Source: an uncultured Candidatus Peribacteria bacterium (GTDB taxonomy: Bacteria > Patescibacteriota > Gracilibacteria > BD1-5 > JAGOOR01). From it: a DNA stretch of 64,000 nucleotides. Under the pieces are notes generated by a model. That model was not told the DNA's origin and did no database searches. It saw only the letters and a list, made by a program, of their open reading frames with translations. Below are positions 25,194 through 35,373 of the stretch, in pieces. Made by a program: the position numbers and the translations under genes. Position 1 is the first letter of the stretch, and each line of letters opens with the position of its first letter. Location: assembly GCA_964544625.1 (NCBI GenBank), contig CAZJBQ010000002.1:49462-113461 (forward strand). Direction: 5' to 3'.

Positions 25194-25317
25194 TATTCAT
25201 TCCAAAATTCCTACGAAAAATGCAAGATATTTCCTATTCAAATCACTTGCACAAAAAATGTATTCGCACTCATGTGCTTTTGAGGCGGGTTTTTGAAAAA
25301 CTCACACAAAATCATTT

Positions 25318-25365
25318 GACTAGATATAGTGTCTGGATATAAAGGTTGGACACAAGATATTGTGT
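25318..25365. promoter_or_regulatory. tandem NrdR-type boxes overlapping the nrdA promoter
   Basis: GACTAGATATAGTGTC (25318-33) and ACACAAGATATTGTGT (25350-65), 32 bp apart. TTGACT/TATAAA promoter lies between and around them. Confidence 0.65.
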
Positions 25366-25433
25366 TTGGTCGATTTTTCTACCAACCCAAAAACTTCCCA
25401 ATTTTCCTCCTTATTTTCTAATAAAGTTGTCGT

Positions 25434-28268
25434 ATGACTCTGGACTCCATCCGCAAGCGCAATAATGAGCTTGTTCCCTTTGACCGCTCTCGCATCGAAA
25501 GTGCTATTGAGCAGGCTTGTATCGCTATTGGTTATAACGATATAGCCTTTATACCCCAGATTACGACAGAGATCATTCTCGCTCTCCAGACTCGATTCGG
25601 AGGAACAGAATATGTCCCGAGTGTGGAGGATATCCAGGATTCAGTAGAGCTTCATCTCATGCGCTCTGGTCGATTCGAAGTAGCAAAAGAATACATCACG
25701 TACCGTCAGAAGCGTATCGAAGAGAGAAATGAAATCGTCGAAGAAAAAATCGAAAAACAAGAACTCAAGGTCCAGAAACGTGATGGAAAAGTAGAAGCAT
25801 TTGACATGGGCAAAGTTCGTCGTGTTTTCGAACTCGCTGCCAACGGTCATCCAGCGATTGATCTCGATCTCCTCGTGAGCAACTTCCACACCAATATATT
25901 TGATGGTATCCACTCTCGAGATATCGCTCAAGCGACTATCATGACAGCGAAGAGTTATATCGAGCGTGATCCGCAGTACTCATACCTCGCTGCCAAGCTC
26001 TTCCTCATGAACTACTACAAGGACCTCATCGGTTCTGCAGATATGAAAAATTCTGGATTTACCAAGTGTTATCATGAAGCATTCAAATACAACCTCAAAT
26101 TCCTGGTAGAAACAGACCATCTCTCTGCTGATCTCATGTCATATGACCTCGATAAACTCGCAGAAGCAATTGATCCAACCCGAGACAATATCCTCACCTA
26201 CCTCTCAGTTCAGAATCTCTACGACCGATACTTTATCCACCATGAGAAAAACCGTCGTGAACTCCCACAAGCATTCTGGATGCGTGTCGCTATGGGTCTC
26301 GCAAAACGAGAAACAGATAAAGAAAAATGGGCAATCCAATTCTATCATCAGCTCTCACAACTCCACTTCGTGAGCTCAACTCCGACCCTCTTCAACTCAG
26401 GGACAAAGCGAAGTCAGCTCTCATCATGCTACCTCTCAACAGTTGATGATGATCTCCACTCAATTTTCAAAATCATTGCCGATGATGCTCAGCTCAGTAA
26501 ATGGGCAGGAGGTCTCGGAAACGACTGGACCAATATCCGTGCGACAGGTTCAAAAATCAAGGGAACAAATGGTGAATCTCAGGGTGTTATCCCATTCCTC
26601 AAGATCGCAAACGATACTGCTGTAGCAGTCAATCAGGGTGGTAAACGAAAAGGTGCGCTCTGTGCGTACATCGAGTGTTGGCATCTTGATTTCCCAGATT
26701 TCTCAGAACTCCGCAAAAATACTGGTGATGAGCGTCGTCGTACTCACGATATGAATACGGCTGCGTGGATCCCTGATCTTTTCATGAAACGTGTACAGGA
26801 AGACGGTAATTGGACACTCTTCTCTCCATCAGATGTTCCAGACCTTCACCACATCTACGGTTCTGCTTTCGAACGCAAATACGCTGAATACGAGAAAATG
26901 ACTCACAATGGTCAAATCACACACTTCAAGGTCATGAAAGCAAAAGACCTCTGGAGAAAAATCCTCTCTATGCTCTTCGAGACGGGTCACCCATGGATTA
27001 CATTCAAGGACCCATGCAATGTCCGCTCTCCTCAAGACCACGCAGGTGTCATCCACAACTCAAATCTCTGTACAGAAATCACACTCAATACTTCAGCAGA
27101 AGAGACAGCCGTGTGTAACCTCGGTTCAGTCAATCTCGCTCGTCATATGAAGGATGGAAAACTCGATCATACTATGCTCGCAGAAACAGTAAAAACTGGT
27201 ATGCGTATGCTCGATAATGTCGTCGATATCAATTTCTACCCAACAAAAGAAGCAGAAACTTCAAACATGCGTCACCGACCCGTCGGTCTCGGTATCATGG
27301 GTCTCGCAGATGCTCTCTACATGCTCGATATCGATTTCGACAGTGAAGAAGCTGTGAAATACAACGATGAAATGATGGAGGCTATCAGCTACTACGCTAT
27401 CCTCGGTAGCTCTGAGCTCGCAAAAGAACGTGGTGCCTATTCATCTTTCCCAGGTTCAAAATGGGATCGCGGAATTCTCCCTCTCGATACACTCTCTCTC
27501 CTCGACGCTGAGCGTGGTGAACGTGTCGATGTGAATCGTAACTGTACTCTCGACTGGACTCCAGTACGCGAATCTATCAAGCAGTACGGTATGAGAAACT
27601 CTAACTGTATGGCTATCGCTCCAACAGCAACTATCTCAAATATCGTTGGTGTCTACCCATGTATCGAACCGATCTACAAAAATCTCTACGTGAAATCAAA
27701 TCTCTCAGGAGAATTCACTGTCATCAATGACTACCTCGTCGCTGACCTCCAAAAGGCTGGCCTCTGGGACGCTCAGATGGTCGCAGAACTCAAGTTCCAC
27801 GATGGTTCTATCCAGAAGATTGACCGCATCCCAGCTCGTCTCCGCGCGAAGTACAAAGAAGTCTTTGAAATCTCACCAGAATGGGTGATCAAAGCTGCTG
27901 CTGTCCGTGGTAAATGGATCGACCAGTCTCAGTCAGTTAATATCTTCATAAAAGGTGCTTCAGGAAAAGTCCTCAACGATACCTATATGATGGCATGGAA
28001 GATGGGTCTTAAAACCACTTACTACCTCCGAACTCTCGGTGCTACGGCTATCGAAAAATCAACCTCTGCGTCTGCTGCTCTCGCTGGTTCTCACGTTTCA
28101 AGTGGTACAACAGCAACTGTCGAAGCGGTCGGTGTCACAGCTCCATCAGCACCAGCAGTTCCATCAGGAGAACTCGAGATGTCTGCAAAACCAAAAAAGG
28201 AATACACTGAAGCCGAAAAGGTCATGTGTTCTATCCTCAATGGGCCCAGCTGTGAAGCTTGTCAGTAA
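25434..28268 (+). CDS. nrdA: class I ribonucleotide reductase alpha subunit with N-terminal ATP-cone(s)
   Basis: Intact 944-aa ORF. ATP-cone N-terminus, NLCTEI active-site motif, C-terminal CEAC pair. Confidence 0.95.
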   Translation: MTLDSIRKRNNELVPFDRSRIESAIEQACIAIGYNDIAFIPQITTEIILALQTRFGGTEYVPSVEDIQDSVELHLMRSGRFEVAKEYITYRQKRIEERNEIVEEKIEKQELKVQKRDGKVEAFDMGKVRRVFELAANGHPAIDLDLLVSNFHTNIFDGIHSRDIAQATIMTAKSYIERDPQYSYLAAKLFLMNYYKDLIGSADMKNSGFTKCYHEAFKYNLKFLVETDHLSADLMSYDLDKLAEAIDPTRDNILTYLSVQNLYDRYFIHHEKNRRELPQAFWMRVAMGLAKRETDKEKWAIQFYHQLSQLHFVSSTPTLFNSGTKRSQLSSCYLSTVDDDLHSIFKIIADDAQLSKWAGGLGNDWTNIRATGSKIKGTNGESQGVIPFLKIANDTAVAVNQGGKRKGALCAYIECWHLDFPDFSELRKNTGDERRRTHDMNTAAWIPDLFMKRVQEDGNWTLFSPSDVPDLHHIYGSAFERKYAEYEKMTHNGQITHFKVMKAKDLWRKILSMLFETGHPWITFKDPCNVRSPQDHAGVIHNSNLCTEITLNTSAEETAVCNLGSVNLARHMKDGKLDHTMLAETVKTGMRMLDNVVDINFYPTKEAETSNMRHRPVGLGIMGLADALYMLDIDFDSEEAVKYNDEMMEAISYYAILGSSELAKERGAYSSFPGSKWDRGILPLDTLSLLDAERGERVDVNRNCTLDWTPVRESIKQYGMRNSNCMAIAPTATISNIVGVYPCIEPIYKNLYVKSNLSGEFTVINDYLVADLQKAGLWDAQMVAELKFHDGSIQKIDRIPARLRAKYKEVFEISPEWVIKAAAVRGKWIDQSQSVNIFIKGASGKVLNDTYMMAWKMGLKTTYYLRTLGATAIEKSTSASAALAGSHVSSGTTATVEAVGVTAPSAPAVPSGELEMSAKPKKEYTEAEKVMCSILNGPSCEACQ

Positions 28269-30885: not shown

Positions 30886-31107
30886 TTCTCTATCTCCGAC
30901 TTTCTCCTCATAGAACGATTCGAAGACGAGGCAGGACTCAACGCAGCACTGCAGTTATGACCGTTATATAATCAACCAGGAGAAATACAAGAAGAGAGCG
31001 AGCATCATTGTGTCTTACGAGAAAGGGGGAATGAAATCTGTGTGGCTCAAGCGCTATGAGTTCCAGTTTTACTCGAAACAACAGAAGAGCGAGTCCAGAG
31101 GATTCTC

Positions 31108-31872
31108 ATGCCAAATAGTTCAGTTATTATTGATACACAATGAGTACGAGATTTTTGTCGGGGAAAATCAGCCCTCTTCCGACACTATCCATACGATACT
31201 GTCAAAGCAGCTGAAGCAAGGATTGATTTCTTAGTTGATGGAAAACCACTGATTGAAAATGCGTCCCTCGATAATCCAGGATATGTCATGTTCAACTCCC
31301 CAGAAGAAGAATCGCGGGTAGATATATGGCCAAGCGTTGTCGATACACGGTTTTTGCAGAGAAATGTTCACCCCTACAGTTGTTCGTATGAACAATTGAA
31401 ATCTTATTTTCATGATGATGGATTTTATGGTCCAGATGGTTTCGTTGTTTCCTATCCTGTTTTCGTAAAAACTCAACACAAAGCTATATCTCATGTCGTG
31501 GAGAATAGGCATGATTTTGGACATCTCGGAGTCTACGGTATGCATACAGAGTATTTCGTCGGAGAGGTGATCGATATTGCTCAGGATGAGATTGGCAAGA
31601 GAGAATTCCGTACCTATATAGTCGGCGGCAGAGCTATAAATGCTGCTCGGATGTGGGAGGATTATGATGATTATAATATACCAGCCGGATTGCTCGATTT
31701 CGCACAGTGATTCGCGACACACCACGCCTCCCACTTCCAAACCTATGGACTCGATATCGCTGAGCTATCTGATGGATCATTTGCCGTGGTGGAGCTCAAT
31801 GGTATAGCACGAGCAGGTCGATACTTTGGGAACAAATTTGAGCCGATACTGAGGGCTGTGCGTGGTTTTTAG
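31108..31872 (+). CDS. ATP-grasp-like protein; start uncertain (frame open back to 30886)
   Basis: EFRTYIVGGRAINAARM and AVVELNGIARAG resemble ATP-grasp C-domain motifs. The same frame as the upstream gene is open immediately after its TAA. Confidence 0.5.
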
Positions 31873-32120
31873 GGGCCTAAGAGGTGATTTATAATCGACG
31901 AACTGTGTTTTTCCGCTTCAAATAAGCATTTTCACGTATACAAATTGTGTACAAACCCCCATAAAAAGCCTATTTTAAGCGCTCAAGAGGCATTTTTTAC
32001 CTATTTTGAGTCTATAGAAGAGAAATGGCTTGCATATGCGATTATTTTTTTATCACGATATATTTCTCATTTTCTGCAATGAGCAGGGAACTTCATTTCT
32101 GGAGTAGACGTGCTATACTA

Positions 32121-32532
32121 ACCTTACAAATTGTTCTTGTGATTTTTGCAACGTTGACTACGTGATGGAGTGAGCTTAACGGGCTCTCACCGCATTTCAA
32201 ATAAAGATACAAAGATACGAAGAAGGCTTGCCTCCTCTATCCTATTATCATCTTTTGATATCACTTGTTCAGACGAGCGTATGATATCTCACATCGAGAT
32301 ATGATATGCTCGCCTGTAATTGGGTGATACGATTGAAGCCGGGTGAAAATGCTACCATTACCAAAGCGCAGTCAAGACCTTGTTCCAAGTTTGTCGAGGT
32401 ACGTCATGTCGTGAATGACGCATGTATTTCATGTCCGGCTCAACAATAGATATTTTTATCAACCGAGCTGTGGTATGAGAACGCACAAGAGGACTCTTTC
32501 CCAGAAATTACCCAATTTCTGGGAATTTTTTT
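32121..32532 (+). ncRNA. candidate structured non-coding RNA, class unknown
   Basis: No credible ORF. 16-bp hairpin at 32273-32313, further hairpins, pairing AGCCGG (32336-41)/CCGGCT (32435-40). Strong terminator at 32500-32532 (10-bp stem plus U7). Confidence 0.3.
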
Positions 32533-32605
32533 GCCCTCTTCACGACCAAGACATATTGACTCACACGAACTGAGAGTACTATAGAAAACATAATTTCATT
32601 CTCTT

Positions 32606-33307
32606 ATGAACATCCAAATAATTCCCGCACGAAATCGCTATACCGCTCACCATGAGTGGCTCGAGAGTAAACATCTCTTTTCTTTCGCAGACTATTATGA
32701 TCCAGCGAATGTGCATTTCGGTGCACTTCGTGTCTTCAACGATGACATCATAGCAGATCATCAAGGCTTCGGTATGCATCCACACAGCAATATGGAAATT
32801 ATTACTTTGGTTCTCGCAGGAGCAATCTCTCATGAAGATTCTTATGGAGGAAAAGCAACCGTTGGTGCGGGTGGCGCGCAGGTGATGTCAGCGGGCTCTG
32901 GACTTCGTCACAGTGAAATCAACAAAGGGGATGAAGCAGTCCATCTCTATCAGATATGGATTATGCCTCGCGAAGAAAATATTTCACCACGACACGACGA
33001 GCGAGATTTTTCTCAGATGCCTCATAATCATCTGGTTCCTATTGCTTCAGGATTTGACCACGATGCCCTCCAGATTCACACTGATGCCGTTATCTATCGT
33101 GGTATTTTTGACGAAGAAACCACCTGGACACACATAGCACACGCTGGTACAGGAAACGTCTTTATCTATGTCACAAATGGGAGTGTAGATCTAGCCACAG
33201 GAGAAACGCTCGAAGCCGGTGATCAGGCACGCATCTCTGATGTAGAAACCTTAGAAATTAATTTCTCTGCTGGTGCAGAAGTGGTAGTGATAGATGTTTG
33301 TGAATAG
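32606..33307 (+). CDS. pirin family protein
   Basis: Intact 233-aa ORF. HPHSNMEIITLVLAG cupin metal motif. Confidence 0.9.
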   Translation: MNIQIIPARNRYTAHHEWLESKHLFSFADYYDPANVHFGALRVFNDDIIADHQGFGMHPHSNMEIITLVLAGAISHEDSYGGKATVGAGGAQVMSAGSGLRHSEINKGDEAVHLYQIWIMPREENISPRHDERDFSQMPHNHLVPIASGFDHDALQIHTDAVIYRGIFDEETTWTHIAHAGTGNVFIYVTNGSVDLATGETLEAGDQARISDVETLEINFSAGAEVVVIDVCE

Positions 33308-33384: not shown

Positions 33385-33600
33385 ATGGTAAAAAGATATC
33401 CAGAGCTAGTGCTCCCTGACGGAGAAGCTACCCCAGCAGACATCGCAATGTGAGATTTTGAACTCATCCCAGGAGTAAATGTACCGAGAGACGCCTCCTC
33501 ATCGTACCATCTTTCATCTAAAATAGCTAAAATACCTGATAAAGTACAAGTTTGTTTGTCCAACAAGAAGAAAAAACACTCACCACGATGAACACATTAG
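33385..33600 (+). CDS. hypothetical small protein (71 aa)
   Basis: ATG 33385 through two TGA to TAG 33598. Overlaps the next start by 13 nt. Confidence 0.3.
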
Positions 33601-33887
33601 AACTCCAAAAATCTATCCTGGCGAATAAAATCGCCAAAGGATTCAATGTCAACGATATTCCTCTCGAATTCGCGTATCTCTACAGTGAAGTAGGGGAGGC
33701 ATTTGAGGCCTGGAGAAAGGGGAAAGATGATCTCGGAGAAGAGCTCGCTGATGTCGCGATTTACCTTCTCGGTATGGCTGAGATACTGGGTATTGATTTG
33801 GAATCTGAGATACTTCAGAAAATGGAAAAGAATGCGAAAAGAGTCTATGAGCACCATGATGGTGTGAGTGTGAGAGTGAGCGATTAG
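33588..33887 (+). CDS. small MazG-like NTP pyrophosphohydrolase
   Basis: EVGEAFEAWRKG...EELADVAIYLLGMAEILGIDLE pattern. Confidence 0.7.
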   Translation: MNTLELQKSILANKIAKGFNVNDIPLEFAYLYSEVGEAFEAWRKGKDDLGEELADVAIYLLGMAEILGIDLESEILQKMEKNAKRVYEHHDGVSVRVSD

Positions 33888-34155: not shown

Positions 34156-34222
34156 TTCAGTATTACTGGTAAATATTCTTTCATTTCACACTAATCTGGG
34201 CGAAAAGAAATTCCATCTATTT

Positions 34223-34270
34223 GACTACATCTAGTGTCTGGATATAAATGCAGCACACAATATCTTGTGT
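34223..34270. promoter_or_regulatory. tandem NrdR-type boxes overlapping the nrdB promoter
   Basis: GACTACATCTAGTGTC (34223-38) and ACACAATATCTTGTGT (34255-70), 32 bp apart. Near-copy of the nrdA upstream module. Confidence 0.65.
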
Positions 34271-34368
34271 TTTCTCTTTCAAACAATCACGCCGTGCATA
34301 CATTTTTTGAACAGCTGCAAAGGGTGTGCGTGGTGTATGAATATTTCATCTTCTAATTTTTCCTTCCT

Positions 34369-35373
34369 ATGGCTGCTGAAAAGAAGCTCATCTGTGCTGT
34401 CGGCACAGATCCAAATAAGATACTTCCCATGAAGTATAAGTGGGCACGTCAACACTACAAAAATGGTGTCGCAAACAACTGGACTCCCGAAGAAATCCCA
34501 ATGCAAAAGGATGTAGAACAGTGGAAGGCAAAAGATGTCCTCACCGACAATGAGCGTCATCTCATCATGTGGAATCTCGGATTCTTCTCGACAGCCGAGA
34601 GCCTCACAGCCAACAATATCGTCCTCGCGATGTATCGTCATGTCACTAATCCCGAGTGTCGTCAGTATATGCTCCGTCAGGCCTATGAAGAAGCAGTTCA
34701 TACAGATACTTTTGTATACTGCTGTGATTCATTGTCTCTCGATCCAGAAGAAGTTTTTGCAGCTTATGAGACCATCCCTTCTATCAAAGCAAAAGACGAT
34801 TTCGTCGTCAATCTCACGAAATCAATTCTTGATCCAACATTTGAGATTAATACTACAGCTGATAAGCAAGCGTTTCTCCTCGATGTCATAGGATTTAATA
34901 TGATCATGGAGGGTATATTTTTCTATGCTGGTTTTGCGATGATGCTCCAGCTCATGCGAAACAACAAAATGAAGGGTATCGGTGAGCAATTCCAGTATAT
35001 CCTCCGCGATGAATCTATCCACATCGCCTACGGTCGTGACCTCATCAATGGTATCGTCGCAGAAAATCCAGAAGTTTGGACAGAAGAGTTTAAGGCAAAA
35101 GTCATCGACCTCTTCAAACAAGCAACATCACATGAGCTCGCCTACGTCGAGGATTGTCTCCCATACGGCGTCCTCGGTCTCAATGGTGACGCAGTGAAAC
35201 AGTACGTCCGACATATCGTCGATCGACGTTGTGAGATGATCAATCTCCCGATTCTTCATGGTGATGAAAATCCATTTCCATGGATGAGCGAAATCATGGA
35301 TCTGCGCAAAGAGAAAAATTTCTTTGAAACAAAAGTCACAGAATATCAGACAGCCGGCAATCTCGAGTGGTAA
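34369..35373 (+). CDS. nrdB: class I ribonucleotide reductase beta subunit
   Basis: Intact 334-aa ORF with ferritin-like diiron motifs (EEAVH..., ...DESIH...). Confidence 0.95.
   Translation: MAAEKKLICAVGTDPNKILPMKYKWARQHYKNGVANNWTPEEIPMQKDVEQWKAKDVLTDNERHLIMWNLGFFSTAESLTANNIVLAMYRHVTNPECRQYMLRQAYEEAVHTDTFVYCCDSLSLDPEEVFAAYETIPSIKAKDDFVVNLTKSILDPTFEINTTADKQAFLLDVIGFNMIMEGIFFYAGFAMMLQLMRNNKMKGIGEQFQYILRDESIHIAYGRDLINGIVAENPEVWTEEFKAKVIDLFKQATSHELAYVEDCLPYGVLGLNGDAVKQYVRHIVDRRCEMINLPILHGDENPFPWMSEIMDLRKEKNFFETKVTEYQTAGNLEW

Follow-up and report, generated by a model that had tools for sequence, protein, structure and literature searches.

Results

Location and extent of the proposed RNA gene

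The DNA analysed here is a 64,000-nucleotide stretch (the window) of a contig from an uncultured bacterium of the Gracilibacteria, and its subject is a gap between two protein genes that, with a probability that we put at about 0.85, contains a stand-alone gene for a stable, highly structured noncoding RNA (ncRNA) of ~409 nt belonging to a new family. The gene lies at positions 32124-32532 of the + strand, with the 5' end uncertain by ~3 nt; an extended -10 promoter of its own would start its transcription, and an intrinsic terminator would end it. The gap measures 733 bp and is bounded by a gene for an R2K-type ATP-grasp protein (31042-31872) and a pirin gene (32606-33307), both of which belong to a block of accessory genes that splits nrdA (25434-28268) from nrdB (34369-35373). 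A gene for a MazG-like nucleotide pyrophosphohydrolase (33552-33887) lies between pirin and nrdB in the same block. The host assembly comprises 1.03 Mb in 46 contigs, is 92.8% complete, and reads TGA as glycine (genetic code 25); a tRNA-Gly with the anticodon UCA is encoded in it, and the genes flanking the RNA are open under table 25 only.

An earlier note made from the letters alone (the original prediction) had described the gap as 730 bp of hairpin-dense DNA without a consistent open reading frame, lying between nrdA and nrdB, and had tentatively read all of it as an unclassified structured RNA. The gene coordinates agree with this placement, and the reading as a structured RNA is supported by conservation, covariation, the lack of a frame and the absence of a matching Rfam family. 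Its extent has to be revised, as the RNA fills ~410 nt at the right of the gap and not 730 nt, the left 250 nt being taken up by a conserved upstream block and the promoter.

Conservation within the genus and absence of coding signal

When 60 relatives were searched at the DNA level, each of the 18 other genus genomes proved to contain the stretch, with identities between 88% and 67%; at that sensitivity other genera yielded no convincing match. Altogether 23 copies were recovered from 19/19 genus genomes. They can be aligned end to end, and the motifs of the 5' part, the middle and the terminator loop are shared by all 23, with matching spacing. The copies fall into two paralogous types, A (which includes the window copy) and B, with four genomes holding one of each; the copy number is one or two per genome, and the neighbourhoods are of a housekeeping type and stable within each clade. 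The boundaries of conservation were taken from an alignment of 12 full-length type-A copies, in which the 5' start is the invariant UUACAAAUUGUUCUUGUG, followed by ~400 nt that end in the terminator.

The pattern of change among the copies is not that of a protein gene. Nucleotide diversity is flat with respect to codon phase (0.263, 0.279 and 0.290), so that neither 3-periodicity nor a third-position excess is seen, and TAA or TAG stops occur at a median of 2-4 per copy in each of the six frames. No reading frame is conserved among the copies, under table 11 or table 25, and their indels do not come in threes. The gap is thus without a consistent frame, as had been claimed, and no table-25 coding homologue was found.

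Fold and covariation

The stretch folds better than dinucleotide shuffles of itself (z = -5.1), and z is about -5 on either strand. The + strand is fixed by two alignment column pairs, 44:72 and 255:270, that are G-U or U-G in 23/23 copies, and likewise by the promoter and the U-run. RNAalifold places 75 pairs in the consensus of the 23 copies, and compensatory double changes occur in 34 of these. When the closing helix P1 is included, the consensus rises to 83 pairs, 97.1% of the cells pair, double changes are seen in 193 cells spread over 34 pairs, and covariation scores 0.370. In slid controls, for which the 3' partners were moved by 1-3 columns, 39-51% of the cells paired, 6-13 pairs had double changes, and the score fell to 0.08-0.10. 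The alignment to relatives and the covariation check that the original prediction had proposed thus both gave a strong result.

The predicted fold comprises about eleven helices, with the long-range helices P1 and P2 closing the molecule around an H-type pseudoknot. All of the following elements are on the + strand. P1 pairs UUCUUGUG (32134-32141) with CACAAGAG (32484-32491) and is confined to type A, where it pairs in 15/15 copies with changes from U-A to U-G only; type B lacks both strands. P2 (32154-32163 with 32366-32375) closes the 5' domain onto the pseudoknot. Double changes are found in 3/8 of its pairs within the genus, and in other families it reads GCUCUGC:GCAGAGC, GCUCCAU:AUGGAGC, ACUCCGC:GCGGGGU or GACUGACC:GGUCAGUC. 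The hairpin P3 (32166-32192) contains GTGAG (32170-74) paired with CTCAC (32186-90); its fifth pair changes from A-U to G-C in 8 copies, and its inner-stem sequences are replaced between subgroups. P4 (32220-32236) is an optional peripheral hairpin, absent from 4 copies and with double changes in 4/6 pairs. P5 (32251-67 with 32321-36) has double changes in 8/15 pairs and carries P6, a long variable hairpin (32270-32316) whose sequence is fully replaced in other subgroups and still pairs. The peripheral hairpins P4 and P6 are swapped, resized or lost among relatives. On the 3' side of the pseudoknot are P8 (32377-32400; double changes in 2/6 pairs), P9 (32402-32420; 4/7 pairs, with a conserved loop GUCGU) and P10, a long irregular hairpin (32424-32482) with double changes in 6/10 counted pairs and a conserved ACAAUAGAU segment.

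Most of the elements named in the original prediction could be located within 1-2 nt of where it had put them, and three of its four hairpins correspond to the covarying helices P3, P6 and P9. Its 16-bp hairpin has arms at 32275-32290 and 32296-32311 and extends to the full P6, its GTGAG/CTCAC stem is the conserved helix P3, and its CGTCAT/ATGACG stem at 32402-32420 is the conserved helix P9. The proposed long-range pairing of AGCCGG with CCGGCT did not hold up: it is broken in relatives, AGCCGG itself lies at 32337-42 (one base off), and the bases belong instead to the pseudoknot and to P10.

The pseudoknot (32335-32366) is formed by S1, GAAGC (32335-39) with GCUAC (32351-55), and S2, GGUGA (32342-46) with UUACC (32358-62). 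It contains the invariant loop CGGGUGAAAAU and is followed by the junction CAAAG, which leads into the 3' strand of P2. Across families the loop CGGG(U/A)GAAnAU and the junction UU(A/U)CC(A/G)AAG are nearly invariant, the positions GGG-GAA-AU and UU-CC-AA being fully so. The stems change in step: S2 is GGUGA:UUACC, GGAGA:UUUCC, UCGUA:UACGA or CGAGA:UUUCG according to lineage, and S1 changes in step as well. The pseudoknot was counted sequence by sequence; the MAFFT alignment moves its register between lineages. In single genus-level sequences it scored no better than shuffles (15-34 of 60), so that what supports it is its position, together with the covariation seen from one lineage to another.

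The intrinsic terminator (32498-32532), which had been described as a 10-bp stem with U7, was confirmed and has a stem of 12 pairs (32498-32525) followed by U7 (32526-32532), with the conserved apical loop AUUACCCAAU. It is the strongest of 10 terminator-like sites in 2.5 kb (1.4 expected), and its stem covaries (G-C, A-U, U-A). All three families in which the RNA was found (see below) retain the loop UACC(C/A)A, as does a match from another order. Two tertiary roles were considered for this loop. A kissing contact with AAUUGGGU (32318-25) is a perfect 8 bp in the window, and was rejected because several relatives, G015a among them, have lost it and because the segment is the covarying 3' strand of P5. 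The loop was also rejected as an alternative partner in S2, as genus g4 has S2 as UCGUA:UACGA yet keeps the UACCCA loop.

Predicted promoter and upstream block

The predicted promoter (32092-32119, + strand) consists of a -35 element TTCATT (32092-97), a 16-nt spacer to the -10 hexamer, and an extended -10 element TGCTATACT (32111-19). G(C/A)TATACT is invariant in 12/12 copies and TTCATTT is present in 10/12, and the promoter scores below the cut of a simple consensus scan. In the 12-copy alignment the invariance of the transcript's sequence starts 5-7 nt past the -10 element, and the diverged homologues described below likewise begin just past a -10 element of the type TGnTATAAT or TATACT.

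Further upstream on the same strand, a conserved A/T block ATTATTTTTTTATCACGA (32041-32058) lies ~70-85 nt ahead of the start and is nearly invariant in 12/12 copies. A second conserved block (31914-31955), kept in 12/12 full-length type-A copies at a fixed distance of ~190-200 nt and also present in 4 type-B copies, holds the 17-bp palindrome GTATACAAATTGTGTAC (31936-31952), which is unique in the 1.03-Mb assembly even when 3 mismatches are allowed. The 9-mer half-site of this palindrome, ACAAATTGT, recurs at the start of the RNA (32126-32134). The palindrome, with its recurring half-site, may point to regulated transcription, and the two together may constitute a two-site operator for some regulator. 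NrdR-box-like palindromes (of the ACACAAGATATTGTGT type) lie ahead of nrdA (25314-25368) and nrdB (34219-34273); the upstream palindrome is unlike these boxes, and control of the RNA by NrdR was rejected. Between the two blocks, an A-run, a short variable hairpin and T6 (31963-31998, + strand) were read from the sequence; of all the parts described, this one is the least secure. Relatives retain both the A-run and the T-run, the stem sequence varies, and the terminator scan did not pick up the element, which may be an insulating terminator ahead of the RNA promoter.

Expression

Expression was assessed from assembled contigs of public runs, which come from relatives. In two metatranscriptome studies the sole contigs on 2.8 kb lie at 32322-32494, with depths of 17-35 and 4-16 and flanks at ~0. 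Four contigs from the two studies end at 32493/32494, which may represent a 3' end or a break of the assembly at the hairpin. Two RNA libraries, X15 and X17, cover the flanks too and are hence uninformative. The original prediction had pointed to transcription as a check: contigs do fall on the RNA and not on its flanks, and being assembled contigs they amount to a weak hint of an abundant stable RNA.

Distribution beyond the genus

Two covariance models were used in wider searches, R1, a model of the 3' core, and a second model, R2. Under strict filters R1 found the RNA in 19/19 genus genomes and in 0/132 genomes elsewhere in the order; under lax filters it gave one borderline match in another family. 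A DNA search started from this match turned up another copy in that genome, as well as partial matches in four further genera, and all six non-genus copies were scored by R1 at the expected place. R2 under strict filters matched 18/18 genomes of family f1 (equivalent to the genus), 14/66 of family f2 and 8/66 of family f3, and none of 150 other genomes of the phylum. Under lax filters it matched 13/40 genomes of f2 and 11/40 of f3, with a single match, of 33 bits and with the terminator loop UUACCAAA, in another order of the class. Since both models are biased towards the genus, the counts are lower bounds. Of the diverged matches, 21 were read individually, and all of these have the same structural plan. 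What they have in common is a core made up of a long-range helix, an adjoining H-type pseudoknot whose loop is invariant, and the terminator hairpin with its conserved loop. The family can be traced through the whole order of this code-25 Gracilibacteria genome, with more than 50 members that contain the defined core.

Lineages differ outside this core. Six f3 copies (L108, L110, L113, L114, L117 and L121) share a long invariant segment CAAGGAUUAGUUUUUCAAAACCGAUCUUUAUUCCCCUA that is missing from the window's genus. An A-rich linker, AAAAAUAAAAACAAAAA, occurs 2-3 times per RNA between helices in f3 copies and is found especially in f2 and f3 members; such linkers are weaker in the window RNA (32193-32219). 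Extra weak R2 matches (21-28 bits) were seen at G003:C1:432142-432269, G018:C22:1716-1803, G129:C6:128993-129148 and G129:C15:208817-208934, beside or apart from the main copies, one of them 200 nt from the type-B copy of G003. They may represent duplicates of the RNA gene that are partial or have decayed.

Neighbouring genes

Genes next to the RNA vary by clade and include pirin, ATP-grasp, Vut_1, metallophosphatase, SSB, argS, rsmE, tRNA genes and ligA. The gene 3' of the RNA may be pirin, a gene of unknown function for 297 amino acids, SSB, tRNA genes or a DPBB_1 protein, and the upstream neighbours in relatives include argS, rsmE and ligA. No transposase, reverse transcriptase, IscB or TnpB gene adjoins any of ~35 copies. 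In three copies from genus g4 (L106, L109 and L111) and in L104 (genome G035), same-strand tRNA genes (Thr-Tyr-Leu, or Lys) lie 3' of the RNA gene, an arrangement that resembles a stable-RNA cluster.

Comparison with Rfam and with housekeeping RNAs

The whole window gave no match at gathering thresholds to the 4227 models of Rfam 15, a set that includes OLE, ROOL, GOLLD, raiA, HEARO, 6S, the signal recognition particle (SRP) RNA, transfer-messenger RNA (tmRNA), RNase P, T-box and the riboswitches. A lax search of 1 kb (E up to 10) returned three chance matches only, all with E >= 1: one to NsiR1, which fell on the terminator and scored 18 bits (cutoff 39), and two to small nucleolar RNA models. 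Six diverged homologues searched against Rfam also gave nothing. The Rfam scan proposed by the original prediction therefore places the RNA in no known family. A literature search for an RNA motif in Gracilibacteria found no paper.

Individual housekeeping RNAs were considered in turn. No tRNA or tmRNA is present in the window, and neither ARAGORN nor RF00023 finds a tmRNA anywhere in the assembly (G000), although an SmpB gene lies outside the window at G000:C1:212345-212767. True tmRNAs occur at other loci in at least 12 genus genomes (66-88 bits), as in G013, where the tmRNA is at G013:C1:796097 and the orphan RNA at G013:C1:298829; the lack of one in G000 is therefore probably an assembly gap. 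The orphan RNA is without tRNA-like ends and without a tag reading frame, and RF00023 does not match it even at E = 10. The host's own RNase P RNA is found at G000:C1:173130-173490 (RF00010, 180.3 bits), and the orphan RNA has no P4-type core and no match to RF00010 even at E = 10. Its GGGUGAAA stretch recalls the J11/12 region of RNase P RNA. tmRNA and bacterial RNase P RNA are likewise stand-alone, pseudoknotted RNAs of 350-450 nt in housekeeping neighbourhoods.

The SRP RNA model RF00169 had no match in five genus genomes. SRP_SPB and SRP54 GTPase domains were also absent from G000, G003, G008, G013 and G015, one of which is closed; with neither Ffh nor FtsY present, no SRP RNA is expected. 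Loss of SRP subunits has been reported for many bacteria of the candidate phyla radiation (PMC8080830). As for 6S RNA, the 6S models found nothing in the five genus genomes, one of them closed, the 6S model matching only 5/14 control genomes. 6S RNA is a largely double-stranded rod of ~180-200 nt with a central bubble and is bound to the RNA polymerase holoenzyme, whereas the orphan RNA, at ~409 nt, is about twice as long, branched and pseudoknotted, and has no match to RF00013. A CrcZ-like sponge RNA, which titrates Hfq or Crc through repeated A-rich (ARN)n motifs, would call for an Hfq protein in the host; an Hfq domain was not found in the 92.8%-complete assembly, a negative that concerns Hfq and no other A-binding protein.

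Discussion

The conservation of 32124-32532, the covariation in its fold and the lack of a frame argue for a stand-alone ncRNA gene of a new family. Several points weigh against this reading. None of 500 shuffles reached the observed covariation values, a control that overstates significance because the aligned sequences are related; the slid control is fairer. Support for P1 is moderate, and neither P1 nor S2, at the level of the genus, has a double change within the genus. Scores outside the genus are weak (21-45 bits for many), some of the matches with E between 1e-3 and 1e-2 may be spurious, and the majority of f2 and f3 genomes yielded none. The transcription start is a predicted position, the assembled contigs give neither ends, strand nor level, and the coverage of the flanks in two other RNA libraries makes DNA carry-over possible. 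Finally, no protein gene is a constant neighbour of the RNA among the clades compared, and no partner gene co-occurs alongside it.

Readings that would make the locus something other than a trans-acting RNA fare poorly. The idea of a table-25 protein gene or of a mobile-element RNA (omega RNA, bridge RNA or an intron) has next to no chance of being correct, and coding is already refuted: some table-25 frames in the window do stay open for 110-130 codons, and the genomic place differs among clades, but no frame is kept, the indels and the lack of periodicity are those of noncoding DNA with stops in every frame, and the one or two copies per genome lie in stable housekeeping neighbourhoods of each clade with no mobile-element gene beside them. 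A cis-acting leader (riboswitch, T-box-like element or attenuator) acting through its terminator on the downstream gene would account for a strong terminator directly upstream of pirin. This possibility is largely refuted by the downstream genes, which differ among clades, and is made highly improbable by the lack of a conserved anti-terminator or alternative pairing of the terminator strand, by the conservation of the terminator loop itself, which leaders do not need, by a promoter-like TTGACT...TATAGA between terminator and pirin, and by the absence of a T-box or riboswitch match. We consider it very unlikely that the RNA is a strongly diverged 6S, SRP, tmRNA or RNase P RNA that the Rfam models missed. 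The empty 6S and small SRP searches in five genus genomes and the missing tmRNA in a genome with SmpB leave room for such an RNA, and the sensitivity of the 6S model, at 5/14 controls, could hide a 6S; against this stand the RNase P RNA and tmRNA at other loci, the absence of Ffh and FtsY, a branched and pseudoknotted fold in an RNA about twice as long as 6S, and the presence of two paralogues in one genome, which would be unusual for these RNAs.

Among trans-acting functions, base-pairing regulation is improbable. The unpaired 5' tail (UUACAAAUUGUUCUUGUG in type A) would serve as the seed for mRNA targets and the fold would confer stability, consistent with the invariance of the first 18 nt in 12/12 type-A copies, their unpaired state in the 23-copy consensus, and the related 5' motifs (GUUCUUUA, GAUCAUUAA) kept in other families. 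No site complementary to the tail was found in the assembly, however (the best candidate mismatches at 2 of 18 nt, and 14-mers are no more frequent than by chance), no Hfq was found in the genome, eight bases of the type-A tail form P1 with the 3' end, and ~400 nt of covarying fold far exceeds the needs of a seed carrier. The invariance of the tail may also act partly at the level of DNA, ACAAATTGT being in the upstream palindrome too. Invariant loops among freely changing helices are the pattern of catalytic and aptamer cores, and the RNA follows it, with ~20 nucleotides invariant across families in the pseudoknot loops and junction while the helices change freely; the pseudoknot core by the long-range helix would then be an active site or a ligand pocket. 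A ribozyme or ligand-binding RNA is nevertheless quite unlikely, given that there is no likeness to the ribozyme or riboswitch models of Rfam 15, no fixed downstream gene to regulate and no evident substrate.

As to what the proposed stand-alone ncRNA does, it may act in trans as a scaffold, by binding a protein partner or by self-assembly, as OLE, ROOL, GOLLD and raiA do, a possibility to which we give a little under an even chance. The surfaces for recognition would then be three invariant single-stranded features: the loop of the pseudoknot, the junction CCnAAG and, at the apex of the terminator hairpin, the loop UACC(C/A)A. A bolder proposal, which we regard as unlikely, is that the RNA represents a new large functional class (a ribozyme or the RNA subunit of a ribonucleoprotein not described before) that is ancestral and indispensable across the class Gracilibacteria, with the pseudoknot core and two UACCnAA-type loops forming an active or recognition site. 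If this were true, the retention of one or two copies in ~1-Mb genomes would reflect an essential role. An important role can be argued more generally from the fact that these genomes have shed even the SRP yet keep one or two copies of a 400-nt RNA, in all the genus genomes examined. To our knowledge, large and intricately folded bacterial RNAs are rare, and the classes so far (RNase P, tmRNA, group I and II introns, OLE, ROOL, GOLLD and raiA) have each been a ribozyme, the core of a ribonucleoprotein or a self-assembling particle. The size of the family and the definition of its core suffice to seed an Rfam family and to design metatranscriptome probes, and the RNA can be produced for structural studies and for pull-downs of partners with no need to culture the host.

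The closest parallels are descriptive. Each of OLE, ROOL, GOLLD and raiA is encoded by a stand-alone gene, measures several hundred nucleotides and combines numerous covarying helices with unpaired nucleotides that do not vary and peripheral hairpins that do; these RNAs occur in certain lineages only, sometimes adjoin tRNA genes, and at discovery could not be assigned a function from sequence. The orphan RNA resembles OLE (RF01071), ROOL, GOLLD and raiA in being a stand-alone gene and in its covarying helices, invariant unpaired nucleotides and variable hairpins, and has no sequence or structure match to their Rfam models. It is smaller than OLE, ROOL and GOLLD, and its hosts are Gracilibacteria with code 25 and ~1-Mb genomes. 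It also differs from these ornate RNAs in its core, a pseudoknot clamped by a long-range helix, in its conserved terminator loop and in the frequency of diverged paralogue pairs. With its transcription unit as predicted, it belongs to the descriptive, non-homologous class of orphan large structured ncRNAs of more than 300 nt. What is new is the family, which has no entry in Rfam 15; orphan large structured RNAs as a kind are already familiar from bacteria.

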